NCBI RefSeq assembly: GCF_036365525.1
Contig: NC_090396.1
Location: 28,434,283-28,498,282 of the forward strand
Direction of reading: 5' to 3'
Length of the DNA: 64,000 bases
Source of the DNA: Heterodontus francisci
Taxonomy: Eukaryota
Shown: piece by piece, positions 6,272 to 64,000 of the stretch
How positions within the stretch are numbered: position 1 is the stretch's first letter
How the letters are laid out: each line of letters starts with the position of its first letter
The notes under the pieces: model-generated
Told to the model about the DNA's origin: nothing
Seen by the model: the letters and a program-made list of their open reading frames with translations, nothing else
Databases searched by the model: none
Position numbers and translations under genes: made by a program

Positions 6272-9200
6272 CTGAAAAAAAAGACAACATAAAGGCAGGT
6301 TAACACTTTTTGCAACAGAATCCCTTGCTATATATCTAAATTAGAACTGAAAAGACTTCAACTCATGTAGGCCCTATGGTGTTTTTTTTTAAATAAATGG
6401 GCTTTGGATTTTGTATCTGGCCTGTATGCTCTCCTTCAAGAGTCTTATTGAGGTTCACTTCTTAAATAGCAAGAAAACAAAGACATTGATTGTGTTCATT
6501 TGCAAAAAATTATGTAATTCAGTTTTAGAAGGCCCAAAATATTGATGCATAACATGGAGTATGTGTACTGTAATGTTTTGAGGCTGGAATTGAGGTGCAA
6601 TCTAATAGCAATCTACAAGGGTAAGGACAAATCAAAAAATCCCTTGGTGGTTAAATGTACTGCCTGTTGTGCAACCGAATACTACAGATTAGGAAGGTAC
6701 AAAGTGAAGCCTCTGGTCTATGTTCATCTCAACCTATTGTATTGTGTAATTTAGGTACTTGCATATGACTCCATCAATTGGCTGAGTGTCTTCCATATGG
6801 GGTATGTATAATACACCCATTGTATGTGGCAGTGCAACATATTTAAAAGCAAAGGAATCCAAAAACAGCTTTAAAAAAAAAAATCACAAGAAAACTACAA
6901 AACAACCACTAATGTAATTTGATAGGGTAGGCCTTATGTTCAAAAGTGCCCCAGTCACCAAAGGAACGGTCAATGCTAAAGTTGAGTTACAATGGTCCAA
7001 ATCAGTTGCAAAGTACTCAATTTCTGGGAACTAGGATCATATCTACCTCCAACTATGGAATGAAAATCTCTCTTTGCTCAATGTATATAAGTTTTAAGTG
7101 ACAGTCCCAACCTAATACCTAATGGGGGCAAGTCAAAAACACAAAATACCTTCAATTTGTAACCTAACTCCAGGAGAATAAGAAATAAATGATACGGTGC
7201 TCTTCTTTCAATAGGGCAAAGTATTATTTGTTTATTTGCTTTAAATCAGCATTGTAAAAGCTCCAATTGCATCCATTTTACAACACTGGATGCGCGAGAA
7301 TGAAATGGCAAAGGGGTTTCCTTCTAATATCTGTTTCATAGTATCAAGGATGCAGGGTTTATAGACCACTCTGAGGCCTTTTTCTTTCCTGATGTTACAC
7401 TTGCTATATTTTAGCCAATACTCATCTGAGACAGGGAAAGAACAAATTTATCATAAAAATAAAAAAGGGTGCAAAGAGGTGTTGACCCACTGAAAAATGA
7501 CAATGGGAAAACGGTGTCCAAAGACAGAGAAACTGCTTTAAGTATTTAATAGGAATTTTCCAATAGTGTTCACAAAAGTAATGGGGGAGAAATGTCAAAG
7601 TGGGGTGCAGTTTAAAGGTGAATGTAGACTGAAATCTTCTTAAATCTCAAAAGGGGATATATTGGGGAAACTGTTGAAACTGAAGGTAGACAAGGCTCCT
7701 GGTTTATTAATTTATTTAGAGATACAGCACTGAAGCAGGCCCTTCGGCCCACCAAGTTTGTGCCGACCAACAACTACCCATTTGTACTAACCCTACAGTA
7801 ATCCCATATTCCCTACCACCTACCTACACTAGGGGCAATTTACAATGGCCAATTTACCTATTAACCTGCGCCTTTGGCTGTGGGAGGAAACCGGAGCACC
7901 CGGCGAAAACCCAAGCGGTCACAGGGAGAACTTGCAAACTCCGCACAGGCAGTACCCAGAAGCGAACCCGGGTCCCTGGAGCTGTGAGGCTGCAGTGCTA
8001 ACCACTGCACCACTGTGCCGCCTTGACAACTTTATCCCAGAGCTCTGAAGGAATTAACTCAAATGATTGCAAGTCCACTTAAGAATATTTTTCAGAGCTC
8101 ATGGGACTCAAGCCAAAACCCCCAAGGATTGAAAAATAAACAATGTGACTCCTATCTGCAAAAAAACTAACAAGAGATCAACCGTCAAATTATAGACCTG
8201 TAGCCTTACTTCCACTGTTGGGAAATACTATGAGTGATAATATAAAAGATCAGCTTGAGGAGCATGAGCTAACCTGCTACAGGAAGGTTTTATGAGTGGG
8301 GGTCATGCTTGACTAACTTATTGGATTCTTTTGAGGAGTCAACAGACATAGTAGATAAGGGAGCCACTGATGTTATGGAGAGCGTGCATGTTAACTTTTT
8401 GGATCTCAGGAAGGCAACTGACTGTCCTATACAATAGGCTACTGGATGAGGTCTGAACAAATGGGATAAATGGGAATGTATTCAAATGGATTGATAAATG
8501 CTTGGTTTGTAGACAGCAGATAGAAGTGCATGGGCAGCTATCTGGTTGGTAGCCAGATACCAGTGGAGTGACATAAGGTTCAGAATTAAGGCTGCTGTGT
8601 ATAATTTATATAACAAATTTAGAGGAACAAATTGTGCCCACAGCATTCAAATTTGCAGGCAATACCAAGTAGGGAGTGTGGCAAATGATCAATATCTTTC
8701 TTTCTTTCTTTTTTCTTTTGGGCCTCCTTATCTCGAGAGACAATGGATACGCGCCTGGAGGTGGTCAGTGGTTTGTGAAGCAGCGCCTGGAGTGGCTATA
8801 AAGGCCAATTCTGGAGTGACAGGCTCTTCCACAGGTGCTGCAGAGAAATTTGTTTGTTGGGGCTGTTGCACAGTTGGCTCTCCCCTTGCGCCTCTGTCTT
8901 TTTTCCTGCCAACTACTAAGTCTCTTCGACTCGCCACAATTTAGCCCTGTCTTTATGGCTGCCCGCCAGCTCTGGCGAATGCTGGCAACTGACTCCCACG
9001 ACTTGTGATCAATGTCACACGATTTCATGTCGCGTTTGCAGACGTCTTTATAACGGAGACATGGACGGCCGGTGGGTCTGATACCAGTGGCGAGCTCGCT
9101 GTACAATGTGTCTTTGGGGATCCTGCCATCTTCCATGCGGCTCACATGGCCAAGCCATCTCAAGCGCCGCTGACTCAGTAGTGTGTATAAGCTGGGGGTG

Positions 9201-12200
9201 TTGGCCGCTTCAAGGACTTCTGTGTTGGAGATATAGTCCTGCCACCTGATGCCAAGTATTCTCCGAAGGCAGCGAAGATGGAATGAATTGAGACGTCGCT
9301 CTTGGCTGGCATACGTTGTCCAGGCCTCGCTGCCGTAGAGCAAGGTACTGAGGACACAGGCCTGATACACTCGGACTTTTGTGTTCCGTGTCAGTGCGCC
9401 ATTTTCCCACACTCTCTTGGCCAGTCTGGACATAGCAGTGGAAGCCTTACCCATGCGCTTGTTGATTTCTGCATCTAGAGACAGGTTACTGGTGATAGTT
9501 GAGCCTAGGTAGGTGAACTCTTGAACCACTTCCAGAGCGTGGTCGCCAATATTGATGGATGGAGCATTTCTGACATCCTGCCCCATGATGTTCGTTTTCT
9601 TGAGGCTGATGGTTAGGCCAAATTCATTGCAGGCAGACGCAAACCTGTCGATGAGACTCTGCAGGCATTCTTCAGTGTGAGATGTTAAAGCAGCATCGTC
9701 AGCAAAGAGGAGTTCTCTGATGAGGACTTTCCGTACTTTGGACTTCGCTCTTAGACAGGTAAAGTTGAACAACCTGCCCCCTGATCTTGTGTGGAGGAAA
9801 ATTCCTTCTTCAGAGGATTTGAACGCATGTGAAAGCAGCAGGGAGAAGAAAATCCCAAAAAGTGTGGGTGCGAGAACACAGCCCTGTTTCACACCACTCA
9901 GGATAGGAAAGGGCTCTGATGAGGAGCCACCATGTTGAATTGTGCCTTTCATATTGTCATGGAATGAGGTGATGATACTTAGTAGCTTTGGTGGACATCC
10001 GATCTTTTCTAGTAGTCTGAAGAGACCACGTCTGCTGACGAGGTCAAAGGCTTTGGTGAGATCAATGAAAGCAATGTAGAGGGGCATCTGTTGTTCACGG
10101 CATTTCTCCTGTATCTGACGAAGGGAGAACAGCATGTCAATAGTCGATCTCTCTGCACGAAAGCCACACTGTGCCTCAGGGTAGATGCGCTCGGCCAGCT
10201 TCTGGAGCCTGTTCAGAGCGACTCGAGCAAAGACTTTCCCCACTATGCTGAGCAGGGAGATTCCACGGTAGTTGTTGCAGTCACCGCGGTCACCTTTGTT
10301 TTTATAGAGGGTGATGATGTTGGCATCGCGCATGTCCTGGGGTACTGCTCCCTCGTCCCAGCACAGGCATAGCAGTTCATGTAGTGCTGAGAGTATAGCA
10401 GGCTTGGCACTCTTGATTATTTCAGGGGTAATGCTGTCCTTCCCAGGGGCTTTTCCGCTGGCTAGGGAATCAATGGCATCACTGAGTTCCGACTTGGTTG
10501 GCTGTATGTCCAGCTCATCCATGACTGGTAGAGGCTGGGCTGCATTGAGGGCAGTCTCAGTGACAGCATTCTCCCTGGAGTACAGTTCTAGGTAGTGCTC
10601 AACCCAGCGGTCCATCTGTTTGCGTTGGTCAGTGATTTTGTCCCCCGATTTAGATTTGAGGGGGGTGATCTTCTTGATGGTTGGCCCAAGAGCTCTCTTA
10701 TCAATATCAATGTGCACAGATTTAAAGGGATCAGCTCGATCAGTGGTTGGAGATAATGTAATTATGGGGAAATGTAACATTATAAGTTTTGGCAGATAGA
10801 ATGTTGATATGGATTTCGTGCTAAATGGGACTGTATTTGAGATGCTGCAAATGGACAGAGATCTTGGAGTTTTAGTGAAAAGGTCACCAAAACCATCAGC
10901 ACAATATTCTCAGACTGTTTAAAAAAAAGAACGTTGAGATGTTTAGCAAGAGGTATAAACATATAAATCCAGAGAAATCATTTTATAACTGTATTTGGTT
11001 CTGTTGAGACTACATCTGGAGTTCTGCATGCAATTTTTTGTCTTCCTGTTTCAAAAAAGATATTCAGTTATTGAAGAAAGTACATAGAAGAACTACATTT
11101 ATCAATTTATTTTAATCCATTCCCATTTATCCCATGGGCTTATCCCAGAACACAATGGAATGATGTATACAAACATACGTATTAGGAGTAGGAGTAGGCC
11201 ACTCAGCCCCTCAAGCCTGCTCCGCCATTCAATAGGATCATGGCTGATCTGATTGTAACCTTGACTCCACATTCCTGCCAACCGCTGATAACCTTTCACC
11301 CCGTGCTTATCAAGAATCTATCTACCTCTGGCTTGAAAATATTCGAAGGCTCTGCTTCCACTGCCTTTTGAGGAAGAGAGTTCCAAAGACTCACGACCCT
11401 CCGAGAGAAAAAATTTCTCCTCATCTCTGTCTTAAATGGGTGACCTTTTATTTTTAAACAGTGACCCCTAGATCTAGAGTCTCCCACAAGGGGAAACATC
11501 CTTTCCACATCCACCCTGTCAAGATCCCTCAGGATGTTATATGTTTCAATCAAGTTGCCTCTTACTCTCCTAAACTCCAGTGGATACAAGCCTAGCCTGT
11601 ACAACCTTTCCTCATAAGACAACCCGCCCATTCCAGCTATTAGTCTAGTAAATCTTCTCTGAACTGCTTCCAACGCATTTACATGCTTCCTTAAATAAGG
11701 AGATTAATACTGTACATAGTACTCCAAATGCGGTCTCACCAATGCCCTGTATAAGGAAGCATAACCTCCCTACTTTTGTATTCAGTTCCCCTCGCAATAA
11801 ATGATAGCATTCTATTAGCGTTCCTAATTACTTGCTGTACCTGCATACTAACGTTTTGCGATTCATGCACTTGGGACACCCAGATCCCACTGTGTCTCAG
11901 AGTACTGCAATCTCTCACCATTTAGATAATTTGCTTCTTTTTTGAGGAAAGATTCACTTTTATGGAGGAAAGATTCACTGCCCTGGGTCTTTTCTTTCTT
12001 GAAAAGAGAATACCGAGAGGGGTAATGATAAAAATGTTTAAAATTATGACAGGTTTGGACAAATTGGATCCAAGTTAGCAGCTATGTGTGTACAGCACTT
12101 AAGCGCAAGGAATCCTATTTATGAATTAAGGACAATAGGAGATCCAGGAGGAACTTTCTTTTATTAAATGGTTGCTAACTTTGTGGAAGAGACTACTGAC

Positions 12201-27200: not shown

Positions 27201-30200
27201 ATTGAGGGATAAATATGGCCAGGACATGGGGATAACTTCCCTGTTCTTCTTTGAAATAGTGCCATAGGATCTTTTATGTCCACCTTACAGAGCAGACTGG
27301 ACCTCGGTCTAACATTTCATCCGAAAGACAGCACCTCTAACAGTGCAGGACTCCCTCAGTACTGCACTGGTGTGTCAGCCTAGATCTTGTGCTCAAGTCT
27401 CCAGAGTGAGACTTAATTAGTTCAAACATTTGATACAGTTACGCTCAAAGTACAGTAAGGTATGCCCAATCCTTAAAACAAAATGTGAGAGTAGATTTTA
27501 CTGTAGTTGGGCCTGGAGGAATATAGTGGAAAGTCGGGCAGGGAAGATTACATGCCTGTAAAGGAGTTCGGCTATGTAGCCACAGGAACAGAAAAATCTG
27601 TCCGATAATCTGGACAACTATTTGGCACAATCAACATTGCTATTTTATTCACCAAAATTAACCACATCCTCACTTACCCCACTCTTTTTAGTCCCACTGT
27701 TTGGTTTCTGTCCAGGTGGTGATGGAGGCATTGTACTGAAGGAGTGGAGATTGTGCATGGAGTATTTGGTAGACTTCCATATTGGGCAAAGGTCTTTACT
27801 GAACTGTACAAACATGAAAAGAAGAATGACCTTGCGATTAATGAGTACCTTTCACATACTCAAACCATTCTAAAGCACATTACAGCCAATTAATTACTTT
27901 TAAAGTGGAGTTATTGACATTTTGCACACAAACACGATTAACTAATTTGCGCTCGGCAAGATCACACAAATGAGCTAATGACTAGATATTCTGTTACTTT
28001 TAAAATGATGTTCGTTGAGGGATAAATATTGTCTAAGACACTAGGAGAACTCTTTGTTGAATAGGCCACAGGATCTTAAACATCCCCCTGAGCAGGCAGA
28101 CTAGGCCTTAGTTTATTGTCTCATCCAAGAGATGACACCTCTGACAATGCAGCACTCCCTCAGCAGAGCACTGGAGTCTCAGCCTAAATCTTGTGCTCAA
28201 GTCCTGGAGTAGTGCTTAAATCCACAAGCTTCTGAGTTAGAGGCAAGAGTGCTAAAGATTAAACACAAACCACAATGTTTACTTAAATATGCAAAATTTT
28301 AGCATGCAAATTCACATTACAAAAGAAAGATTTTTATTTTGCGTAGCCCTATACTAGCTGTAAACAGTTGGAGCCCCTGATTTATATGGTGGTCAGTCGT
28401 GAGTCATTCATATTGCCCATGGCATTAAACCTTGCCCCAATGAAGGTGCAGGAGAATAAATTAGAAACTACAGAAGCTTCAGCTAAATTCTCTGCTCCTG
28501 GAATGATTTTTGTTGGACTATTTTCATCTCAGTTTTCTACTCAATAACATCTTTGCATCATTTGTCATATTTCCTAGGTTGTAATTATATTTCACCACTG
28601 GTCTAAGACCAGTGCCCATGGAGTTCAATTGGCATGTCTCATGTTGTAGTGTGGGCTACTAATTGTACTCTGCCAGGCAAGGGAACAATTTTGTACACCT
28701 ATGCCTACAGGAAGCGCTCCAATCTCTGACTGACACTCTAGAAATATTAAAAAATACTTCACAGTGAGTGCTTTAGTTGCCTAAAAGGACCAAGAGACCA
28801 CCTGAACACCCTTTAAACTTCACTGCACACCACGATGGTGTTCGACTCCAAACCTTGCCCAGGCCAAGCACTGACCCTGCTGTCGTGTATTCTGGACCTG
28901 ACTCCAAAGTTATGCTACCACTTTCTCATCGCAGTTGCATTCCAAGAACACAAGAAATAGGAGTAGAAATAGACCATAGAAATAGACCATAAGCCCTTCG
29001 CGCCTGCTCCGCCATTCATTATGATCATGGTTGATCGTCCAACTCAGTAACCTGTTCCCGCTTTCGCCCCATACCCTTTGATCCCTTTAAACCCAAGAGC
29101 TATATCTAACTCCTTCTTGAAAACATACAATGTTTTGGCCTCAACTGCTTTCTGTGGTAGTGAATTCCACAGGCTCACCACTCTCTGGGTGAAGAAATTT
29201 CTCCTCATCTCAGTCCTGAATGGTTTACCCCGTATCGTTAGACTATGACCCCTGGTTCTGGACTCCCCCACCATCGGGAACATCCTTGTTCTACCCTGCA
29301 TCTACCCTGTCAAGTCCTGTTAGAATTTTATAGGTTTCTATGAGATCCCCCCTCACTCTTCTGAATTCCAGCGAATATAATCCTAACCGACTCAATCTCT
29401 CCTCATACGTCAGTCCCGCCATCCCAGGAATCAGTCTGGTAAACCCTCGCTGCACTCCCTCCAGAGCAAGAACATCCTTCCTCAGATAAGGAGACCAAAA
29501 CTGCACACAATATTCCAGGTGTGGCCTCACCAAGGTCCTGTATAATTGCAGCAAGACATCCCTGCTCCTGTACTCGAATCCTCTCGCTATGAAGGCCAAC
29601 ATACCATTTGTTTTTTTTACCACCTGTTGCACCTGCATGCTTACCTTCAGCAACTGGTGTATGAGAACACCCAGGTCTCGCTGCATATTCCCCTCTCTTA
29701 GTTTATAGCCGCTCAGATAATAATCTGCCTTCCTGTTTTTGTTACCAAAGTGGATAACCTCACATTTATCCACGTTATACTGCATCTGCCATGCATTTGC
29801 CCACTCACGCAACTTGTCCAAATCACCCTGAAGCCTCTCTGCATCCTCCTCACAACTCACCCTCCCACCCAGTTTTGTGTCATTTGCAAATTTAGAGATA
29901 TTACATTTAGTTCCCTCATCTAAATCATTAATATATATTGTGAATAGCTGGGGTCCTAGCACCGATCTCTACGGTACCCCACTAGTCACTGCCCCATCCC
30001 TGCGGTACTCCCCTAGTCACTGTCCGATCCCTGCGGTACCCCACTAGTCACTGCCCGATCCCTGCGGTACCCCCCTAGTCACTGCCCGATCCCTGCGGTA
30101 CCCCCCTAGTCACTGCCCGATCCCTGCGGTACTCCCCTAGTCACTGCCCTATCCCTGCGGTACCCCCCTAGTCACTGCCCGATCCCTGCGGTACCCCCCT

Positions 30201-31714
30201 AGTCACTGCCCGATCCCTGCGGTACCCCCCTAGTCACTGCCCGATCCCTGCGGTACCCCACTAGTCACTGTCCGATCCCTGCGGTACCCCACTAGTCACT
30301 GCCCCATCCCTGCGGTACCCCACTAGTCACTGCCCCATCCCTGCGGTACTCCCCTAGTCACTGCCCCATCCCTGCGGTACTCCCCTAGTCACTGCCCTAT
30401 CCCTGCGGTACCCCCTAGTCACTGCCCGATCCCTGCGGTACCCCCCTAGTCACTGCCCTATCCCTGCAGTACCCCCCTAGTCACTGCCCGATCCCTGCGG
30501 TACCCCCCTAGTCACTGTCCGATCCCTGCGGTACTCCCCTAGTCACTGCCCTATCCCTGCAGTACCCCCCTAGTCACTGCCCGATCCCTGCGGTACCCCC
30601 CTAGTCACTGCCCGATCCCTGCGGTACCCCACTAGTCACTGCCCAATCCCTGCGGTACTCCCCTAGTCACTGCCCCATCCCTGCGGTACCCCACTAGTCA
30701 CTGCCCAATCCCTGCGGTACTCCCCTAGTCACTGCCCAATCCCTGCGGTACTCCCCTAGTCACTGCCCCATCCCTGCGGTACCCCACTAGTCACTGCCCA
30801 ATCCCTGCGGTACCCCACTAGTCACTGCCTGTGACCATATGGCCCATTGAGCTTGCTCCGCCATTCAATACGATCATGGCTGATCTTGGGCTTCAATTCC
30901 ACTTTTCTGCTCGCTCCCATATCCCTTGATTCCCTGCGAGACCAAAAATCTATCTATCCCAGCCTTAAATGTAATCAATGATGGAGCATCCACAACCCTC
31001 TGGGGTAGAGAATTCCAAAGATTCACAACCCTTTGAGTGAAGTAATTTCTCCTCATCTCAGTCCTGAATGATTGACCCCTTATCCTGAGACTGTGTCCCC
31101 GTGTTCTAGATTCCCTGACCAGTGGGAACAATCTCTCAGCTTCTACCCTATCAAGCCAATATATTATATCATCCCCATTGATAATTAGTGGATTCACCTA
31201 GGAACAGCAGATTTCTAAGTGACTTTAGTAAAGACAAAACTGTGAACTTGTGATTGCCAATCATCCAGCCTTTGAATGACCTTTCTGGAAATTCCTGAAA
31301 TACATAAGCCAGACATAATAGATTACCATTATCAGTCCTTTTCCCATTCCTGTGCCTTGTGATGTGGCCATATTAGTTACTCAGGGGGATCAATCAATGC
31401 ACGTCAGCAACAGAGTTTCATAACTCACGTCATGATCCCATTCTATGCCTTGTTGTTGCTTTGCTGTGGGCAGCCTTTCTGAGATCCCCCTGTTCAGTGA
31501 CACTGCATGCTAAGTGTTTAGCGTTTCCTGGTCTGGTACTCACCACTGTGTTCGTGCACCGTGCGTTTGCTGCGATTAATCTCGGACGGTTGCATTGCCG
31601 TGCGGTGATTCTGCAGCAAAAAGAAGCCGCCCTGGCTGCTTCGCAGAAAACTTCCCAATTAAACCTTGTTGAAATAGCGTTCGTCCGTTTCCAGAGCTGC
31701 AGTAGCACCGCCAT
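6140..31714 (-). CDS. SCO1: SCO1, mitochondrial cytochrome c oxidase copper chaperone; join(31714-31544,27803-27678,26381-26291,17702-17505,13823-13731,12585-12470,6271-6140), 927 nt, 308 aa
   Basis: All seven exons have GT-AG boundaries and compatible phases. The product has an Arg-rich presequence, the TM helix [18 protein letters not shown], the FTHCPDICP CxxxC motif and the VDHT His ligand. Internal exon sizes 91/198/93/116 match the vertebrate SCO1 structure as I recall it. Confidence 0.95.
7703..8023 (-). mobile_element. tRNA-derived SINE, HE1/V-SINE type
   Basis: Minus strand GGCGGCACAGTGGTGCAGTGGTTAGCACTGCAGCCTCACAGCTCCAGGGACCCGGGTTCG (A/B boxes), CR1-like tail GGCCGAAGGGCCTG..GTGCTGTATCTC(TAAA)n; homologous to 14376-14678 and 26797-27130. 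Confidence 0.85.
8697..10699 (-). mobile_element. RTE-clade (BovB-like) LINE, 5'-truncated, with an uninterrupted RT and C-terminal ORF
   Basis: ORF 8765-10780 has [33 protein letters not shown] and C-terminal [17 protein letters not shown]. (GAAA)n tail; 9-bp TSD ATCAATATC at 8688-8696 and 10700-10708. Confidence 0.95.
11170..11945 (-). mobile_element. CR1 LINE 3' fragment
   Basis: ORFs 11296-11673 and 11736-11921 ([34 protein letters not shown]). Confidence 0.9.
12470..12585 (-). CDS. SCO1: SCO1 exon ([39 protein letters not shown]), 116 nt
   Basis: Acceptor ctctctag|AG, donor ATT|gtaagt; strong similarity to SCO1. Confidence 0.95.
13731..13823 (-). CDS. SCO1: SCO1 exon ([31 protein letters not shown]), 93 nt
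   Basis: Acceptor gttacag|AC, donor G|gtagg; contains the IDPxRD motif. Confidence 0.95.
14376..14678 (+). mobile_element. tRNA-derived SINE, HE1/V-SINE type
   Basis: GCAGTGGTTAGCACTGCAGCCTCACAGCTCCAGGGACCCGGGTTCGATTC ... GTGCTGTATCTCT followed by an A-rich tail. Confidence 0.85.
15765..17065 (-). mobile_element. 5'-truncated copy of the CR1/L2-group LINE family found full length at 21794-25076
   Basis: ORF fragments [18 protein letters not shown] and [27 protein letters not shown]; same 3' UTR as the full-length copy. Confidence 0.9.
17505..17702 (-). CDS. SCO1: SCO1 exon carrying CxxxC ([23 protein letters not shown]...[24 protein letters not shown]), 198 nt
   Basis: Acceptor tgtttag|AG, donor G|gtaaa; lies within ORF 17470-17781. 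Confidence 0.97.
18145..19130 (+). mobile_element. 5'-truncated copy of the same LINE family as 21794-25076
   Basis: [30 protein letters not shown]; 3' end GGGCAATTAGGGATGGGCAATAAATGCTGGCC...GAATAAAA. Confidence 0.9.
19420..20120 (+). mobile_element. L2 LINE 3' fragment
   Basis: Decayed [16 protein letters not shown]...QNSAAHILT...HWL...LWNSLP...FKTLLK motifs typical of the L2 ORF2 C-terminus. Confidence 0.75.
20535..20720. repeat. Inverted repeat of the Penelope-like terminal sequence
   Basis: GCTGGAAATACTCAGCAGGTCTGGCAGCATCTGTGGAGAGAGAAACAGA (~20581-20629) is followed by its near-reverse complement (~20658-20705). The same sequence ends the PLEs at 37710, 41208 and 46064. Confidence 0.8.
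20750..21632 (-). mobile_element. Deu-domain-type tRNA SINE (SacSINE1-like), interrupted by a hAT MITE
   Basis: tRNA-like head at ~21632-21580 on the minus strand; core GATAAATATTG...GCCATGGGATC...AAAGACAGCA; L2-like tail. Homologues at 26718-27415, 27825-28255, 41740-42158 and 50910-51260. Confidence 0.7.
21076..21514. mobile_element. hAT-type MITE with TCGGG subterminal repeats
   Basis: TIRs TAGAGGCATGCT / AGCAGGCCTCTT; 8-bp TSD CAGTGCAG (21068-21075) / TAGTGCAG (21515-21522); many TCGGGTCGGG repeats. Related copy at ~56694-57081. Confidence 0.8.
21794..25076 (-). mobile_element. Full-length ORF1-less LINE (CR1/L2 group): tRNA-derived head, then an APE endonuclease-RT ORF broken by a few frameshifts and stops
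   Basis: EN motifs [42 protein letters not shown] motifs [32 protein letters not shown]. 8-bp TSD CCTGTTTT at 21786-21793 and 25077-25084. Confidence 0.9.
24985..25076 (-). promoter_or_regulatory. tRNA-derived internal RNA Pol III promoter at the 5' end of the LINE
   Basis: Minus strand A-box-like TACCGTAGTGG (25067-25057) and perfect B box GGTTCGAATCC (25003-24993). Confidence 0.8.
26291..26381 (-). CDS. SCO1: SCO1 transmembrane exon ([30 protein letters not shown]), 91 nt
   Basis: Acceptor tcttagtag|CCT, donor A|gtaagt. Confidence 0.95.
26797..27130 (+). mobile_element. HE1/V-SINE-type SINE nested in a Deu-type SINE (26718-27415, minus)
   Basis: Homologous to 14376-14678; CTATGA-type tail; the host SINE resumes at ~27131. 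Confidence 0.8.
27678..27803 (-). CDS. SCO1: SCO1 coding exon 2 ([42 protein letters not shown]), 126 nt
   Basis: Acceptor ttcttcttttcatgtttgtacag|TTC, donor GGG|gtaagt; phase 0/0 and open; the S/P/K-rich segment precedes PVTW as in other SCO1 proteins. Confidence 0.8.
28979..29990 (-). mobile_element. Relatively young CR1 LINE 3' part
   Basis: ORFs 29291-29962 ([35 protein letters not shown]) and 29044-29301. Confidence 0.92.
29962..30829. repeat. 31-bp minisatellite, about 28 copies, derived from CR1 RT coding sequence
   Basis: Unit CCGATCCCTGCGGTACCCC(A/C)CTAGTCACTGC; TAGTCAC recurs every 31 nt (e.g. 30014, 30045). On the minus strand it encodes [10 protein letters not shown]. Confidence 0.95.
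30833..31155 (-). mobile_element. CR1 3' end hosting the 28979-30831 insertion
   Basis: ORF 30874-31197 ([16 protein letters not shown]...[13 protein letters not shown]); its tail continues at ~28945-28978; GACCATA is duplicated at both junctions. Confidence 0.8.
31544..31714 (-). CDS. SCO1: SCO1 first coding exon, mitochondrial targeting peptide (57 aa)
   Basis: Kozak gcaccATGG at 31714; [20 protein letters not shown]...ARCTNTV is R/A-rich and acid-poor; phase-0 donor GTG|gtgagt; locally CpG-rich. Confidence 0.8.
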
Positions 31715-31834: not shown

Positions 31835-32522
31835 TCTTTTCTTTTCTTTCATTTGGGCCTCCTTATCTCGAGAGACAATGGATACGCGCCTGGAGGTGGT
31901 CAGTGGTTTGTGGAGCAGCGCCTGGAGTGGCTATAAAGGCCAATTCTGGAGTGACAGGCTCTTCCACAGGTGCTGCAGAGAAATTTGTTTGTCGGGGCTG
32001 TTGCACAGTTGGCTCTCCCCTTGCGCCTCTGTCTTTTTTCCTGCCAACTACTAAGTCTCTTCGACTCGCCACAATTTAGCCCTGTCTTTATTGCTGCCCG
32101 CCAGCTCTGGCGAATGCTGGCAACTGACTCCCACGACTTGTGATCAATGTCACACGATTTCATGTCGCGTTTGCAGACGTCTTTATAGCGGAGACATGGA
32201 CGGCCGGTGGGTCTGATACCAGTGGCGAGCTCGCTGTACAATGTGTCTTTGGGGATCCTGCCATCTTCCATGCGGCTCACATGGCCAAGCCATCTCAAGC
32301 GCCGCTGACTCAGTAGTGTGTATAAGCTAGGGGTGTTGGCCGCTTCAAGGACTTCTGTGTTGGAGATATAGTCCTGCCACCTGATGCCAAGTATTCTCCG
32401 AAGGCAGCGAAGATGGAATGAATTGAGACGTCGCTCTTGGCTGGCATACATTGTCCAGGCCTCGCTGCCGTAGAGCAAGGTACTGAGGACACAGGCCTGA
32501 TACACTCGGACTTTTGTGTTCC
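31835..32522 (-). mobile_element. RTE/BovB-like LINE, short 3' copy
   Basis: Near-identical to 8697-9388; 11-bp TSD GCACAGCAAAT at 31824-31834 and 32523-32533. Confidence 0.95.
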
Positions 32523-33189
32523 GCACAGCAAATACACATGGAACAATATTCAAACAGCAACATTCTCCAGCTGGGTTGTTTTACTTTATTGTCCACATTA
32601 CAGCTTTAGTCAACACCAACTTGAAATTAAACACTAACACAGCGAACTAAAGTTGCATCCTATAAAACATTTGATAACATTGCTACATCGAGTAAATGGA
32701 ATTCCTAAATATATGCATTCGTTTTGCTATATATTGCACATATGAACTAATCACTGCATGCCCCACTATATATGTTCGAATTACAAAAATCGATCCCTAA
32801 AGGTATATTTATTTTAATCAGTGCTATTTCCACCATTTCTCGATTAGGAAACTAGGCAGATGGAGGGTCCATACGCCGATACATTTTGTAAATCTTTTTC
32901 CTTCTCAAAAGCAATACAAAATTAGGTTAAATTATCATTTCTTTTTAATAAACCGATCCGTATTTTTAAAAATTGTACCACAAATTACAATATTATTCAA
33001 CTGTATGAACATTGGCTGGTATCGAACCCAAAATGTCGAATATTTTCACAAAACTGGTACAGTTATTCCAATGAATTCCAATCATAGCCAGCTTTTTCCA
33101 CCTAAGGAAGGCCCTTGGAGCGTTGGGCTAATATGTGGGGATCTTGATAGTGGAAGACTTTCTGAGCCTTCAAAGAAACTTTAAAAGTG

Positions 33190-37975: not shown

Positions 37976-38619
37976 ATGGTGCACATGTATAAGTGAAATA
38001 TTTAAAAGAATGGAGACTGAAGTAGCCAAAAACAACCTGTATTTTACTTTTGGAGTAATAGCAGACATTCAATATGCTAATACAGAGAATGGCTTTAACT
38101 ATTCAAGGACAAGAGAACGTTACTATAGGAACAGCCTCCACTTGCTGCGCAATGCTGTCAAAGTATGGAATGAAGAACCTATCACCCCCAGGTTTATTCT
38201 GCAGCTTGGTGATATCATTGATGGATGCAATTCACAGCTAAAGTCCTCAGATGATGCGCTACAAGTGGTAATAAATGAATTTGCAAACTGTACATCTCCA
38301 GTGCACCATATCTGGGGAAACCATGAATTTTATAATTTTGACAGGGAGGTATTACTTAAATCAGCTCTCAATAGCAAGTACCTGGGAAATGACAAGTCCT
38401 CCGATAACACGGACAGCAGCGTTAAGACAGACTTGGACCCTGATGATGCAGAGGGGTTTTATGGCTACCATTTTAGCCCTTTTCCTAAATTCCGCTTCAT
38501 ATTAATTGACCCATACGATCTCAGCATTCTGGGAAGGAAGAAGACCAGCAAAAAATACCATGATTCAATGCAGAGACTGAAATCAAACAACAGAAATGAA
38601 AACCTTAATAGCCCCAGAG
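37976..38619 (+). CDS. ADPRM: ADPRM copy 1 exon 2 (ATG at 38010)
   Basis: Acceptor ttttttttag|ATG at 37975/37976; donor AGAG|gtaaac. Confidence 0.95.
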
Positions 38620-41600
38620 GTAAACCGTTATTTTATTATCAACTTGTCATGTAATTTTGGTTTTACCTTGTGTGCACTTCCTGTCAACTTTTTACATTTA
38701 TTTAAAAAAACAAGTCTCATTGCCACATTGAAAATGGAACAGTCTATGTAAAATTTGTCTTATAATTACACACTTCCCCTCTGGGAGGTGCTGCATGACA
38801 ATGTTAGCAGGAGAATGAAATTGCTCTAACTAGTTTATAGAGACAGTTCCCATTATAAACGTGGGCATAGGAACTTACAATGGAAATATATAATATGAGA
38901 ACAGAATGAATATGATTTTTAAAGTGGGGACTGGTTTATATTTGCACCTTCTGATCTAATAATCTCCACCCTCTACCCCTACCTCCCCTCAATACTGCAC
39001 AGACTTGACTCTCCACAGGAAATGCCACAGAAGGTTGACTAGTATTATCTAACAATGTGATTAGGTTGCAGCAGTTTAGTACCAGCTTCCCTACCTGCAA
39101 ATTGTCTACCTATTGGGCTGAAGGCTGCCCCAGAGAATGGGAAGGAAAATTATAGTGAAGCACCTGGAGATGCTTCCTTGGTTCGACCTTAGAAAAGCAT
39201 AGGCACCTAGCATAGAATAATACTATTATGAAGTAGACATGGAAAATAAGAAAATAAAATTAGTTCATGAATGCCAGAATAATGTCCTAATTTTTTTTAA
39301 AAACCTAATACCTGTCAATTAACCAATCTCTACTTTGTATGTGCAGTGTACATCGTTCTTGGTTTGTAGACATAAAGGTCATTAGTTTTTCCTTCATTTA
39401 ATCCTTTCAGTAGGACAAACCCCTGTTTGGGGTTGTACAAGATTTGCCCATGAATTTGCATTGAAAACCTATATTTCTTCTTCATGTAGGTCTCTTTAAT
39501 TTTCATAGTCATTACAATTGTTCATGTCTGTTAATAAAATGCTTACAAAAGCACATCTGATAGAAACTTTTAAAAATTATGTGTAGAATGGTAACTACCT
39601 AAAAGGATTGAAACCCAATTGAAGGATTCCGATCCGATTGGAAACTACAAACAAAGTTTGAATGATTTAAGAATTTATTTCAAAACCCAGAATTGAACTA
39701 CAGCTGTATCAACCTGCCCAGTAGTCGTAGCATTGACCACAATATAAAGCAGTCCCAGAATTAATATTAACTGGTATACGGCATCAATTTGGGTTTGGAG
39801 AATAGTAGTATAATTAATCAATTTCCATAATGTGTAATCCTAACAGAAATGTTGTTTGAAATATTTTCTGTCAGAATTCAATTATTAGCTTTGTTTACAA
39901 AACGCACAAATAGCAAAAGAAATGTAAAAATTGGTACAAATGCAAGGATATGTATTAAAAATAGAGAATTTTAGTAGCATTGCTGTAGTGAATCAGTGCG
40001 AATTGAAAATTTATTCATTCCATATTTTTAACTGACAGGTCTCACTGGACTGAATTTACGCTTTACAGGGTTTAATGGAGGTTTCAGTCAAGAGCAGCTG
40101 GAATGGCTGAACAAAATACTCACTCTCTCTGATAATAACCAAGAAAAGGTTACAGTCATTGGTAAGTAATGATGTGTCATCTGTCATATTAGGTGTTAAA
40201 CCAAGGTCCTATCTGCCTGTCATGGATACAAAAGATTCTGTGGCAGTATTCAAAGAAGAGCAACCTTGCTCTCATGCTGACGTTACTATCCTCAGCCTCC
40301 TGAAGTTTTCCACTGAATCTCAACATAAGCTCAAGGAACTGCCCCTCATCTTTTGATTAGGCACTTTACAGCCTTCTGGACTCAAATGCCCCCATGTTGT
40401 TTCCTTTTCCTTTGCAGATTGTGGTTTTAATCTTGTTTTTCTCTTGTTTTTGTGTTCAGATGCCAGCTGTTCTTCATTCAGCCATTCACACCTCCTCTAG
40501 ACACATCTTTTGTTTCTTTGGCCCAGCACCACCAACTCTTTTGTCATTTAATCTCTCCTGCCTTCCACCCTATCACAGACCTTCCCTTCTGTTCTTTTTC
40601 CATACTAACCCCTTTCACTTGCTTATAACCTATTACATGGCTTGGCCATGTGAGCCGCATGAAAGATGGCAGGATCCCCAAAGACACATTGTACAGCGAG
40701 CTCGCCACTGGTATCAGACCCACCGGCCGTCCATGTCTCCGCTTTAAAGACGTCTGTAAACGCGACATGAAATCCTGTGACATTGATCACAAGTCGTGGG
40801 AGTCAGTTGCAAGCGTTCGCCAGAGCTGGCGGGCAGCCATAAAGACGGGGCTAAAATGTGGCGAGTCGAAGAGACTTAGTAGATGGCAGGAAAAAAGGCA
40901 GAGGCGCAAGGGGAGAGCCAACTGTGCAACAGCCCCGAAAAACAAATTTCTCTGCAGCACCTGTGGAAGAGCCTGTCTCTCTAAAATTGGCCTTTATAGC
41001 CACTCCAGGCGCTGCTTCACAAACCACTGACCACCTCCAGGCGCGTATCCAGTGTCTCTCGAGATAAGGAGGCCCAAAAGAAACCTATTACATTTCTAAC
41101 TTTTCCCAGCTCTGATGAAAGGTCATTGACCTGAAAAGTTAACTCTGTTTCTCTCTCTACAGATGCTGCCTGACCTGCTGAGTACTTCCAGCATTTTCTG
41201 TTTTTATTTAGGGAGTCAAAATATCCTCCTTCATTCCATCCCTTGTATGTAATATTGGCCAGGAAGACATCATACTCATGCTCTTATCACAAGAGACTTA
41301 CAATAATGGGAGCTGCACCTACATTTGCATTGCCTTGATCTCACTTATATTGATCATTGTGCTGATACTTGGTTTCATTAAGATTTAATCTTGAACCCTT
41401 TATACCATGTTAGACCATTCCCCTGGAGGAATTACCTAGAAAAAAAGATGCAAATATTGGAAGAGAAAGCTAGGTTAATATTTCAGAGGTTACCATTCCT
41501 TAATAATTTGAATGTTCCAGGGAAGTGTTAGACACAAGACATTAAAGTGACTCTCCTTTGAACTTTTTGCACATTCTATTTTAAGTTTACCTCTTCCTTA

Positions 41601-43516
41601 TGTAATCACACATTTGATTACTTTTCCATGAAATAAAGTTTTCCTTTTCTTCATTATTTTCATTCAAAATTTATTGTGAATTGATGCATTATAATTTCTA
41701 TCTTGTGATTAATATCAGTTACAAAATAATTTTTGTGAACGTATATATGCATTTATATACAACCTTATCACATCCTCAGGATTCCCTAAAGTACTTTTCA
41801 ACCAATGGATTACTTTTTGAATATAACAAGGTTCAACAATTGAATGATCAGATCATCTGTTTTTGGTTGCGTCGGTTGAGGAAGAAAATGTTGGCAAGAC
41901 ACCAGGAAACTCCCTGCTGTTCTTTGAATATGCCGTGCAATCCTTTGCATCCACCTGAGCAGGTAGATGGGACTTGGTTTAACATCTAATATGACAGACA
42001 ACACATTCAACAATGTAGCTCTTCAATGGTGCACTGAAGTGCCAGCCTAAATTAACTGATCATGTCTGTAGTGGGGCTTGAATCCAGAACTAGAGGTGAG
42101 AGTGCTATCCAGTCTTCTGACTTGGGCAAGAGTGCCAGCAACTGAGCCTAGCTGATACTTAAAATGTATGCACAAGTATTTAAAACTACATTACAAGGAC
42201 TTCACAAAAAAAAATTGCAGGTCCACTATCTGGTATGTGTAGTTACGTTTAGAAACAAATCTCAAATCCATACAGCCATTCAGCAATTAAGAAAAAGACC
42301 ATCTTTCATTTCCATAGAGAGAATTGGAGAGTTTGCTGAGGAAATCTTTTTAATTGCTGAGAGTACCGTTTGCTGTCTTCCACTTGACTTTATCAGTTTG
42401 ACAGTGCCCTTATTTCAGCTCATAATCTAGGATGGCAATCCTGAAGGAGTGCTGTGCCATTGCAGTTGCCATCTTCAGTGTAACATCTCATCCAAGTCAC
42501 TTGTACCTGTTCGTTAGTTTGCTGCTAGCAAAAGCAACTGAACACTTCTGGGCACTATGTTACATGAATGACATTGTAAATGTCTTTGTGAAATTTCCTC
42601 CAGTATTTTTAGCAAATGTGTAATTTGCTGATTTTTTTTTTTTCCTTTTGATGTCAGTTTATTATCTTTATCTGCCATTCATCTTATAGGCCAATTAGAC
42701 TACAAAGTTTGCACCAATGCAAAGCAACTAGATCTTCATGTTGATGCAGGATATGTAGTATTAGTCAAGCATAAAGTCACCTATACTAGGGTTCTTAATT
42801 TTAGCAATTGATACCTTAGGAACTTGATATTATAACTTGAGCTTCATTTAAAAATTTTCTAATGTTAACAGACTCTCCTGTTGTTTCCCTGCGAACATTA
42901 AAATTAAACCAGGATTTGCATGATGTGCATGGGAAGCAGAGACATGCAGAGTTCTGTTTACTGTTATTTAGAGAGATGCATAGTCCTGTACAAGTGTTCT
43001 GTCAGCTCTTTGTTGCTCTACTGGTCTCGCATTGGTACCTGTAATATAGTTGCACCCTTATCTTATAGGTTATTGTTTTACCTGGTTTGACTGAAGTACT
43101 AAAAGATGGATAGAGTGGATTTGTTGCTTTCTACTTTGATTAGGCATTGAGCAATATAACATGTATCTATTTTAGGAAGGGGGTAAGATGATGTAATTGT
43201 AAACTGTTTTCTTAATGCAGGTCATCTTCCTGTCCACCCATATTCTACAGATCCAATGTGCATTGCCTGGAACTATGATGAGATCCTCTCAGTATTGTAC
43301 GCACACGGTAGTGTAGTGTGTTTTCTGGCAGGACACGATCACGATGGTGGCTACTACTTGGACGATCATGGAATTCACCATGTTACCTTTGAAGGTGTGA
43401 TCGAAACATCACCAGAGAGCCATGCATTTGGTACCATTCATGTATATGAAGATAGAATGATCTTAAACGGAAGGGGCAGGATTCCTGAGAGAATTCTATA
43501 CTACAGAAAAACATAA
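38010..43516 (+). CDS. ADPRM: ADPRM, Mn2+-dependent ADP-ribose/CDP-alcohol diphosphatase, copy 1; join(38010-38619,40039-40161,43221-43516), 1029 nt, 342 aa
   Basis: Metallophosphoesterase motifs IADIQ, QLGDIID, WGNHE, FNGGFS, GHLP, CIAWNY, GHDHDGG, EGVIE; GT-AG phase-1 introns; open frame to TAA. Confidence 0.95.
40039..40161 (+). CDS. ADPRM: ADPRM copy 1 exon 3 ([41 protein letters not shown])
   Basis: Acceptor ctgacag|GT, donor G|gtaagt. Confidence 0.95.
40258..41208 (+). mobile_element. Penelope-like terminal fragment (hammerhead-like motif at 41108-41144) interrupted by an RTE
   Basis: Homologous to 37200-37710; CTGATGA-A-AGGTC-ATT-GACCT-GAAA at 41112-41136. Confidence 0.7.
40639..41081 (+). 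mobile_element. RTE/BovB-like LINE, short 3' copy
   Basis: ORF 40650-41030 nearly identical to the C-terminus of ORF 8765-10780; TSD AACCTATTACAT at 40627-40638 and 41082-41093. Confidence 0.93.
43221..43516 (+). CDS. ADPRM: ADPRM copy 1 exon 4 (coding part)
   Basis: Acceptor taatgcag|GT; GHLPVHP...MCIAWNY...GHDHDGGY...YYRKT*. Confidence 0.95.
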
Positions 43517-55560: not shown

Positions 55561-56693
55561 CAATTAAAAATAGTAATGTTCTGCCTGTCTCTGCTAGTTT
55601 AACTTATTCAGCAGGCTTTTATAATTTAAAAAGTCAGATTTGTGGGGGGGGGCGGGGGTAACATGGGTCATCTTTTTGGGGTTTGATAGGTTGGTATATA
55701 TGCAATAAATGCAAATTAACATCTTTAAAATGTAATTAAGATATTTAATCTGAAATCTGACATTGACGGTATTTTTTTCTGTTTTTATTTGACGTTTAGA
55801 TATATAATTGCTGCACCACCTTCAGTTCGGAAAGAAAATACACATTAAGGATCTTAATTGTTGTTGCAATTTGTCCAGTTTGGCGGAAATGATGTACATG
55901 GGTTTCCCTCGTTTGATCTCTGCAATAGAATCAATGAAAATGACGGCCCTGATACTGTGCCGTTAAGGTAGGACGGTCAGCTCCCTGTCTGCGTTAGCGG
56001 TGAAGAATCACTGTGTCAGCTTCTGTACCCTTGTGTGGGGGAAATTTGTTGATGTAGATTTCTGCATTGGAATTTCTGTTCTGGTTGGAGATTGCGGGCT
56101 GTTCTGTTATCGGATCGCCTGATATTTCTCGTACATACAGCAACAGTCATTCTGCAGCAGGTACAATTCAAAGACGGGGCACGGTCTATATGTCGTTCCC
56201 AAGGAATATTTCATCTTTGTAGATGTACACTCACGTTTCCTTATTTTCAATGAAACTTGCAGGTTTGTTTTAATTAAAACTACACCAATTAGTATAATAA
56301 TATTTTAATTTATATATCGCTTTATTAAGTCGAAGTTATTCAAAGCACTTCACAGGATGAAGTGGTCCGAAAAGTGCAGTATTTTATGTAGGCAGTGCAG
56401 GATTGGAAATGCAACATTTTATGTAAGGAGCGCAATATTTTCTGCAGGTAAATCTATGGATAGAGATGTCGAAACTCTTGGTGGGCGACACAGGTGCCAT
56501 GACACAGGTCCTGAGTCACAAATTTGGACAAATGTTCTTTTTCAGTCGCCAGGCTTGCAGTAGCACTTATCACAAATCCAGGCACATGCAGTTCACGATT
56601 TTCCACAATAAAAATTAAAGAAGAAAAAAAATCTTAAGGCAGCTTGTGCTTGAAGTTACAGGAGGGGCTTCCAGCCACCAACCTACGTCCAGC

Positions 56694-60607: not shown

Positions 60608-60789
60608 ACAATCCTGGCATCAGATTATCAGTAAATCTTTTACCAATATAGAATTGCCAGGTGGTATGAACAAAGAAAGCTTAACAATAATTATTACTTT
60701 AACTTATACTAGAACTGAGCCAATTTTAAACCTAAGTTTTATATTTTTCAGATGGTGGCAAGGTATGTGGAATTTTAGCTTTTGAAAGA

Positions 60790-61384
60790 ATGGCAACTGA
60801 AGCAGATGAGAGTGAAAAACTGAATTTTGCTTTTGGAGTCATAGCAGATATTCAATACGCCAATGTAGATAATGGTTACAATGACACACGCACAAAGAGG
60901 CGTTACTACAGGAACAGCCTGCATCTGCTGCACAATGCTGTCAAGGGATGGAATGAAGAACCTACCACTCCCAGGTTTATTCTGCAGCTTGGCGATATCA
61001 TTGATGGATGCAATTCACAACTAAAGTCCTCAGATGATGCGCTACAAGTGGTAATAAATGAATTTGCAAACTGTATGTCTCCAGTGCACCATATTTGGGG
61101 AAACCATGAATTGTATAATTTTGACAGGGAGGTATTACTTAAATCAGCTCTCAATAGCAAGCACCTGGGAAACACAGATAGCAGAGTTGAGACAGAGTTC
61201 AACCTTGATGATCCTGAGGCATTTTATGGCTACCATTTTAGCCCTTTTCCTAAGTTTCGATTCATAATAACTGACTCATATGATCTCAGCATTCTGGGAA
61301 GGAAATATTCCAGCAAGAAATACCATGATTCAATGGAGATACTGAAGTCATCCAACAAAAATGAAAATGTTAATACCTCGAAAG
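60790..61384 (+). CDS. ADPRM: ADPRM paralog (copy 2), first coding exon (exon 60752-61384); downstream exons not in the window
   Basis: Open 595-nt phase-1 exon with IADIQYA, QLGDIID and WGNHE; acceptor ttttcag|ATG and donor AAAG|gtaat at positions homologous to copy 1. Confidence 0.9.
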
Positions 61385-62424
61385 GTAATTTAAGGTTACA
61401 TCCATATACAGTGGTGTATCTTTATTTTTGGTTTCCAATATAGAAAAATAAATTTTGAGCCTCTAATAAATACTATTTTTTAATTCCCGAATGCATTGTT
61501 GAAAACACCAGTTTTCTTTTTTTAAGCAATGATGTTTCATGCATTTTTCTTAAGACTGGGCACGTCTTTCATAAAGGCATTGCCCTTTCTTAATTAATTC
61601 ACTGTCTGAAACTTCCTATTTTGGTTTAAATACCAGGAACAGGTTATCTTTCTGTATTCATTGTTCAGCCTCACAATTTCTGGCTCTGTGGTATTCTGTT
61701 AATAAAATGCATATCATGCACTATTTAGTAAAGTTATATTTAGGACATTAGTCTTTAAAGTGTTGTTAGACAATAACTCATTTAGACATCATAAATTGCA
61801 GGAGTAATACATAGAATAATGTATTAATTTTTGACAATAATTATGTAGGCAATAAATACTAATTTCCTAGGGAAACTTACCTATGAGAGAGTAGTTGCCT
61901 TCTTTGTTTGATTGTGTTGGTTAGATTTCTTTACTGTACCTCTAGGAATATAGAGGATAAAGCTGAACCACAGGGCATAAAGGAAAACTCCACTTTCAGT
62001 CACCATGATAAAAAAAAACTCTAATCTCTCTCATAGTGCTGTTTCTGCGCACTCAATAAGAAGTGGTATCGTAAATAGTAGATGGGAGCAAAAAGTTTCA
62101 AAAGGACAGATAGATTGAGTGAGTGGGCAAAAATGTGGTAGCTGGAGTTCAAGTGGGAAAGTGTGAGGTCATCCACTTTGGACCTAAGAAAGACAGATCA
62201 GAGTATTTTCTAAATAGGGAGAAGCTAGAAACTGCGGATGAGTAAGATTTAGGGGTTGAAGTACAAAAATCACTAAAAGCTAGTGGGCAGATAAAAAAGT
62301 AATTAAAAAGACCATTGGGATGTTGGGCTTTCTCTCAGGGCTGGAATATAAATGGGTGGAAGTTACATTACACATGTACAGACTTGGCTTTTATTTCCAT
62401 GAGTATAGGCGAAAGAGATGAATT

Positions 62425-63659: not shown

Positions 63660-64000
63660 TGAAGAGTAGATAGGGAGAAACTGTTCCACTCATGAAAGGG
63701 TCGGGAATGAGAGGGCACAGATTTAAAGTAATTGGCAAAAGAAACAAAAACAACAGGAGGAAAAACTTTTTCATGCAGCGAGCAGTTGAGATTTGGAATG
63801 CACTGCCTGAGAGTGTGGTGCAGGCAGGTTCAGTCGAGGCATTCAAAAGGTAATTAGACTGTTATCTAAAAAGGAAGAATGTGCAGGGTTACAGGGAGAG
63901 GACAGAGAGCACTAGGCGAATTACTCATTTGGAGATCTGGTGCAGACATGATGGGCTGAATGGCCTCATTCTGTGCTGTAATAATTTTGTGATTCTGTAA
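63660..64000 (+). mobile_element. CR1 3' end
   Basis: RGHRFK...FFMQRAVEIWNALP, then 3' UTR GGGCTGAATGGCCTC and a TTCTGTGA-type tail. Confidence 0.85.

Follow-up and report, generated by a model that had tools for sequence, protein, structure and literature searches.

The window analysed here is a 64,000-nt stretch of Heterodontus francisci DNA. Its + strand carries two long coding exons of ADPRM type, one at positions 37976–38619 (copy 1) and the other at 60752–61384 (copy 2). In a self-BLAST of the window these exons display 82% identity over 666 nt, and no flanking or intron sequence is found to be shared between the two copies. The duplication is thus limited to the coding exons. In the 6.0-Gb genome the long exon has exactly two matches, as does the last exon. 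Both long exons match the Pfam Metallophos domain (PF00149); the copy 2 match is above the cut-off (E = 2e-6), and this exon also matches PDB entry 2NXF (E = 5e-47). An assembly artefact or an allele is ruled out by the 82% exon identity, the lack of shared introns and the presence of separate orthologs in eight other species.

The long exon of copy 1 has its ATG at 38010, encodes Tyr37 and Leu196 (human numbering) and is spliced to the next exon in sequencing run X1. A middle coding exon is at 40039–40161 and the last coding exon is at 43221–43516, with Asp250, Met252, Cys253 (TGC at 43259) and a TAA stop codon, all on the + strand. Copy 1 therefore has both features of a canonical ADPRM, an aromatic residue at position 37 and Cys253. 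The human mutant F37Y resembles the wild type (mutant data of PMC4334965), thus copy 1 with its Tyr37 is taken as canonical, and it would keep the ancestral ADP-ribose/CDP-alcohol role.

The copy 2 long exon is preceded by an AG acceptor and followed by a GT donor. Its ATG is at 60790 and it encodes aa 1–198 of a 337 aa chain. The intron that begins at 61385 runs to position 64000 and continues outside the window, where the other two coding exons are located. The preliminary description, which was limited to the long exon, had proposed retrieval of these exons, dN/dS analysis and a check of RNA-seq data. In 100 kb fetched 3′ of the window, exons 3 and 4 are found intact 8.7 kb and 26 kb downstream, on the + strand. 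Exon 3 (G000:C26:28504402-28504524; 70120–70242 in extended window numbering) has GT-AG boundaries and holds Phe210. Exon 4 (G000:C26:28521963-28522258; extended 87681–87976) encodes His241, Asn250, Gln252, Gly253, His278 and His280 and ends with TGA. The equivalent of Cys253 is thus a glycine, whose GGT codon is at C26:28522001-28522003. The spliced frame has 337 aa and no internal stop, and all introns are GT-AG. Both long exons contain a short out-of-frame upstream open reading frame on the + strand, which starts with the exon and ends before the main ATG, at 60752–60778 in copy 2 and at 37976–37996 in copy 1.

The last 337 aa of database protein P0111 are identical to copy 2, and P0100 contains copy 1; both proteins have source names of Heterodontus francisci ADPRM proteins. 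The P0111 model begins in an exon at 56223–56262 that adds 26 low-confidence N-terminal residues. A contig of run X1 splices instead from an exon that ends at 55967, which represents either alternative first exons or an error in the model.

This 249-nt contig matches positions 60750–60972 with 0 differences, and the 25 nt beyond map uniquely and with 0 mismatches to 55941–55965. The 3′ end of an apparently non-coding upstream exon is thereby placed at 55941–55967 (+ strand), with an AG|GT junction at 55967 and the GT donor at 55968–55969. Copy 1 is spliced exon-to-exon in the same run, therefore run X1 contains mRNA. The contig supports transcription of copy 2, as one contig from one sample that spans the joint of the upstream and long exons only. 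Contig depth in run X1 is 5 for copy 2 and 94 for copy 1, a measure that cannot rank genes. The copy 2 exon is covered in X1 alone of four runs, in one sample, and the zero cover in X8–X10 is uninformative either way. Runs X2 and X11, from other organisms, have contigs that are nearer to copy 2 than are their canonical-like contigs: in the former 16 of 228 nt, 11 of 184 and 41 of 541 (with 21 gap letters in addition) differ, compared with 78–80 of 556 in the canonical-like ones. Run X4 has a canonical-like contig only.

Human ADPRM (P0223) was used as the alignment reference. All 12 published residue numbers compared are recovered with it, and likewise with pika numbering; misalignment of the 37 and 196 equivalents is thus ruled out. 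Copy 2 displays 52% aa identity to human ADPRM and 79% to copy 1. It retains Asp25, Gln27, Arg43, Asp74, Asn110, His111, Phe210, His241, His278 and His280 (human numbering); the codons within 60847–61107 (+ strand) are those of Asp25 (60847), Gln27 (60853), Arg43 (60901), Asp74 (60994), Asn110 (61102) and His111 (61105). The dispersed metallophosphatase motif by which PMC4334965 defines the ADPRibase-Mn-like family, DX[H/X]-GDXX[D/X]-GNH[D/E]-[G/X]H-GHX[H/X], is complete in copy 2 as DIQ, GDIID, GNHE, AH and GHDH. The family-unique regions s2s3, h2 and h7h8 align without loss to the human protein and to 2NXF, with Arg43 and Phe210 present. An AlphaFold model of copy 2 has a mean pLDDT of 87.4, and its closest fold is 2NXF (rmsd 1.6 Å, TM 0.97 by target length). 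The preliminary description of a tandem ADPRM paralog that keeps the catalytic motifs is borne out by the two long exons and by retention of all metal and catalytic residues relative to the human enzyme, and its motifs and codon positions are correct: copy 2 has DIQ at 60847, Asp at 60883–60885, RYY at 60901, GNHEL at 61099, Val at 61369–61371 and GT after 61384.

The residues that differ are in the substrate pocket. Asp32 of copy 2 (GAC, 60883–60885) aligns with human Phe37, the adenine contact, which is Tyr in copy 1. Val194 (GTT, 61369–61371) aligns with Leu196 and Ser197 (TCG) with Pro199, both within 61369–61380 on the + strand; copy 1 has Leu and Pro. The Asp and Val previously reported at the 37 and 196 equivalents are therefore correctly placed. 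In the last exon copy 2 has Asn250, Gln252 and Gly253 where copy 1 has Asp, Met and Cys. The canonical signature of aromatic 37 plus Cys253 is absent from copy 2, which has Asp37 and Gly253.

Protein searches and protein-cluster look-ups gave full-length copy 2 orthologs from nine shark species of four orders: Heterodontus, Pristiophorus, Carcharodon, Cetorhinus, Stegostoma, Rhincodon, Hemiscyllium and two Chiloscyllium species. All nine species also have a canonical copy, and the paralog is free of stop codons and frameshifts in each. Consecutive accession numbers suggest that the tandem order is present in other sharks too. In a tree of 33 proteins the nine paralogs form one clade (support 100/99) with a stem of 0.15. 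The clade is placed inside elasmobranch ADPRM with Callorhinchus outside, and its position relative to the rays is poorly fixed. Pristiophorus is a squalomorph and carries the paralog, thus the duplication predates the galeomorph/squalomorph split. No ortholog of the paralog was found among the retrieved proteins of ray, catshark, smooth-hound, sevengill and chimaera, a search of protein clusters only and not proof of absence from rays, Carcharhiniformes, Heptranchias or chimaera. In rays and skates (P0115, P0110 and P0117) a single ADPRM was found, with Pro or Thr at 196 and with Tyr37 and Cys253 kept.

A residue survey covered 237 distinct sequences, essentially a vertebrate set; two paralog fragments were set aside and the 226 sequences other than the orthologs include isoforms and near-duplicates. 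Gly253 is found in 9/9 orthologs, which counts as one evolutionary event and not nine, and in 0/197 of the other sequences that are occupied at this position, where Cys occurs 196 times and Ser once. Residue 37 is non-aromatic in all nine orthologs (Asp in six, Gly in three); among the others it is Phe or Tyr in 212/224 and non-aromatic in 12/224. At 196 the orthologs have Phe (seven), Val (one) or Leu (one), and Phe occurs in 1/219 others. Residue 252 is Gln, His, Glu or Asn, i.e. polar in 9/9 and Ala in 0/9, and Ser199 and Asn250 are each present in 9/9. A search for short last-exon fragments gave 16 proteins; 13 of these include position 253, all without Gly, and none of the 16 was an additional shark paralog. 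One protein of the family, P0116 from a characin fish, has a duplicated last-exon segment in a 503 aa chain, with Cys253 in both segments; it is probably two fused neighbouring ADPRM copies.

The survey alters two earlier assignments. Val196, which had been presented as a specificity change, is conservative and private to Heterodontus francisci among the nine orthologs, seven of which have Phe. The NHEF to NHEL change, also listed there, is ordinary variation and is rejected as a sign of new function; Leu follows GNHE in 48/182 ordinary family members, and 2/9 paralog orthologs retain Phe. Positions 30 and 163 were considered as diagnostic of the paralog and rejected, as they are common to shark copy 1.

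The class-conserved sites that are changed in the paralog number 3–10 of 147–196, depending on threshold, and 2–4 of these are the sites 37, 196, 252 and 253 that were mutated to engineer the human enzyme. Over 12 threshold settings the hypergeometric P for this overlap is between 3.5e-7 and 2.8e-4, with 196 and 252 leaving the conserved set at the strictest settings. At 80% conservation the changes that are absent from shark copy 1 affect 37, 199, 252 and 253, and also 196 if two exceptions are allowed. This enrichment shows remodelling of the pocket and not which substrate is used, because the engineered sites were picked as pocket-lining.

Comparison of copies 1 and 2 over 336 codons gives a dN/dS of 0.29 (dN 0.114, dS 0.398), and the paralog is under purifying selection. 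A pseudogene is rejected on the basis of the stop-free reading frame, the GT-AG introns, this dN/dS value and the spliced contig. The dS between the copies is patchy: 0.89 at aa 1–58, 0.88 at aa 199–239 and 0.11 at aa 59–124, and the clustering has a P of about 0.016 for a window picked after inspection. Eleven residues restricted to a single shark order occur in both copies. The two copies separate in 0/200 bootstraps on core columns and in all bootstraps on the remaining columns, a test that is partly circular because the segments were chosen from the Heterodontus francisci dS profile. The pattern is consistent with repeated gene conversion that affects the catalytic core and at no time extends across 37, 199, 252 or 253. 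Gene conversion appears to keep the core alike in both copies, and selection would hold the pocket residues apart. Mean between-order protein distance is 0.182 for the paralog and 0.173 for the canonical copy (25 species pairs), a similar pace after divergence.

These data bear on the proposal that the paralog was retained because of gene dosage or its tissue expression and has the substrates of copy 1, its pocket changes being tolerated drift, or that it is a recent pseudogene. Gene conversion could partly explain the low core divergence without selection, and the failure to find an ortholog in the ray, catshark, smooth-hound, sevengill and chimaera proteins would fit a dispensable gene, although that absence is unproven. 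Against this, the frame is open in all nine species of four orders and dN/dS is 0.17–0.19 even in the two least-converted segments. The changes are at known specificity sites and were then held fixed, and in the human enzyme the F37A mutation costs 50-fold on ADP-ribose (PMC4334965). Retention for dosage, or recent decay, thus appears highly improbable.

In the human enzyme this 50-fold fall in ADP-ribose efficiency leaves CDP-choline as the best substrate (PMC4334965, Table 1), which is also the case for F37A+L196A and F37A+L196F in the data of that paper. The effect of L196A is minor, a 2–5-fold drop across all substrates (PMC4334965), and Phe37 and Cys253 are named as specificity determinants, with Leu196 minor, in PMC4334965 and PMC5773619. 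The preliminary description had cited 37, 196 and Cys253 together as determinants, which holds for Phe37 and Cys253 and only to a minor extent for Leu196. It had also stated that mutation shifts activity to cADPR or other substrates; loss of Phe37 does change the preference, but alone it favours CDP-choline and not cADPR.

The F37A mutants are one ground for regarding the paralog as a CDP-alcohol (CDP-choline, -ethanolamine or -glycerol) or 2′,3′-cNMP hydrolase in which the preference for ADP-ribose was simply lost. Asp37 could contact the choline cation, and a CDP-alcohol would stay the best substrate if the shark scaffold shares a zebrafish-like low kcat on cADPR. Zebrafish ADPRM binds cADPR but hydrolyses it with an efficiency about 150-fold below that of the rat enzyme, a difference whose cause is unmapped in the account of PMC3407115. 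The scaffold thus matters, and a fish scaffold may respond differently to Gly253. Fixation of Gly253 in 9/9 orthologs is however unexplained in such a hydrolase, since glycine at this position lowers both efficiencies in the human triple mutant, from 22000 to 3870 for CDP-choline and from 4000 to 1960 for 2′,3′-cAMP (PMC5773619). The change from Ala to Gly at 253 cuts other substrates 2–6-fold further (PMC5773619). This argues against a CDP-alcohol or 2′,3′-cNMP as the selected substrate, and such a hydrolase is considered improbable.

The activity that gains is that on cADPR. C253A raises cADPR efficiency 11-fold, specifically. The triple mutant F37A+L196F+C253G prefers cADPR 12–24-fold and becomes specific when V252A is added (PMC5773619). 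In Table 1 of that paper its cADPR efficiency is up 12-fold while efficiency falls 180-fold for ADP-ribose, 40-fold for CDP-choline, 12-fold for 2′,3′-cAMP, 18-fold for NAD+ and 120-fold for FAD. Among the nucleotides with a fold change in PMC5773619, cADPR is the only gainer and the nine others all fell. From these human mutants copy 2 is predicted to be a natural cADPR-preferring phosphohydrolase, which is the favoured reading although we regard it as evenly balanced. A small residue at 253 and a non-aromatic 37 are features of the engineered type in 9/9 orthologs, and non-aromatic 37, Phe196 and Gly253 occur together in 7/9. The earlier proposal of a neofunctionalized enzyme that uses cADPR, 2′,3′-cNMP or a CDP-alcohol would therefore stand in part: a changed pocket is well supported by the intact gene, its presence in nine sharks, selection and the sites affected, but Gly253 disfavours the last two substrates relative to cADPR.

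In the proposed mechanism, loss of the aromatic residue at 37 would remove the adenine contact at the rim, to which the low Km for linear ADP-ribose is due. With Gly253 the steric block beside the “northern” ribose would be gone; the rigid cADPR ring could then be accommodated, and the metal-bridging water would attack the cADPR pyrophosphate in line. The product would be N1-(5-phosphoribosyl)-AMP, and the cADPR calcium signal would be ended without making ADP-ribose. A source of cADPR is plausible, as the genome has two neighbouring candidate loci of PF02267 (CD38/BST1) type on the same strand, about 90 kb apart (G000:C1:161970913-162063103, L019–L022).

Several observations are against the cADPR reading. 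All of the kinetics are from a human background, and a zebrafish-type scaffold may differ. The exact engineered residue is matched only at 253, and at 196 in 7/9; residue 37 is Asp or Gly and not Ala. The Phe196 and Ala252 of the engineered enzyme are unmatched in copy 2 (Val196, Gln252). At 252 the orthologs have Gln, Glu, Asn or His, which are larger and polar, whereas the gain came from the smaller Ala. Asn250 is present in 9/9, while among the reported mutations D250A did the strongest harm to cADPR activity (PMC5773619).

These residues also belong to another explanation, that the pocket was remodelled for a substrate outside the human panels (2′/3′-cADPR isomers, O-acyl-ADP-ribose or ADP-ribose-phosphates), and that the paralog resembles the engineered mutant because a pocket lined by so few residues offers the same sites to both. 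Changes that are fixed in the paralog and have no engineered counterpart cluster at the pocket (Asn250, Ser251, polar 252, Ser199, Ala239–Ala240 and Asp37), and the polar 252 and acidic 37 suggest that contacts were gained, not only that space was made. On the other side, the gain of the Gly253 triple mutant on cADPR only (PMC5773619) and the exact C253G and L196F matches fit cADPR without extra assumptions. A substrate outside the panels is therefore judged somewhat unlikely.

Taken as a preference for cADPR, the data tentatively suggest, at a little less than an even prospect, that sharks evolved a dedicated cADPR phosphohydrolase before the galeomorph/squalomorph split, through pocket changes that engineers later found, and that it is the first natural enzyme dedicated to switching off cADPR signals via phosphoribosyl-AMP. 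If this is true, turnover of cADPR to phosphoribosyl-AMP would be a selected, physiological vertebrate pathway, and natural evolution and rational design would have reached the same residues. The paralog might also serve as an improved reagent for depleting cADPR, for which axon-degeneration work has already employed a cADPR phosphohydrolase (PMC10715442). Neither the shark paralog nor a natural cADPR-specific phosphohydrolase is described in the literature searched, which covers few subscription journals. Databases already contain the paralog proteins, under no more specific name than “ADPRM-like”.

Relative to vertebrate ADPRM (EC 3.6.1.53; human P0223, zebrafish 2NXF), the paralog has the exon layout of copy 1, the fold, the metallophosphatase motif, Arg43, His111 and Phe210. 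It differs in having Asp or Gly at 37 and not an aromatic residue, Gly253 and not Cys, a polar and not an aliphatic 252, Phe or Val196 and not Leu, and Ser199 and not Pro, and it is a second, tandem gene. CD38/BST1 has a fold unrelated to that of ADPRM and acts on the N1-glycosidic bond, which yields ADP-ribose; ADPRM-type enzymes cleave the pyrophosphate instead, with phosphoribosyl-AMP as the product. The cADPR hydrolase activity of CD38/BST1 (CD157) is a known route of cADPR removal (introduction to PMC5773619). Compared with the engineered human enzymes F37A+L196F+C253G and F37A+L196F+V252A+C253G (PMC5773619), the paralog is off the family norm at all four positions and shares Gly253 (9/9), Phe196 (7/9) and a non-aromatic 37 (9/9, Gly in three). 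It differs from them in being natural and on a shark scaffold, with mostly Asp37, a polar 252 and not Ala, Asn250, and Val196 in copy 2.

Plant ADPRM-like proteins have Ala at 253, which is small like the Gly of the paralog and possibly favours cADPR (PMC4334965); the Arabidopsis row in S3 Fig of that paper agrees as far as it is legible. They differ from the paralog in that the aromatic 37 is kept and in having Ala and not Gly (PMC4334965). A second ADPRM-like gene in amphibians (P0076, P0078, P0079, P0087, P0089 and P0090) is likewise a duplicate and, as in the paralog, its s2s3 loop is altered near 37. However it has Cys253 in 8/8 rows inspected and Trp at the position that follows 37, and the amphibian duplication is apparently separate from the shark one. 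In the wider set of frog and caecilian second ADPRM-like proteins (P0075–P0079, P0087, P0089–P0091, P0093 and P0181) the 37-loop residue is Gly, Ala, His or Val with the downstream Trp and often a 1-aa deletion. There is a basic stretch before 253 and Cys253 is kept, a possible independent change of specificity.

Two repeat features were also seen in the window. At positions 29962–30829 a unit of about 62 bp is repeated in tandem, and its copies are 93–94% identical. On the − strand, positions 8768–10909 contain a 714-codon open reverse-transcriptase-like LINE frame. Near-identical 3′ fragments of this LINE are found at 31838–32523 and 40637–41083 (96–99%), which suggests a recently active family.
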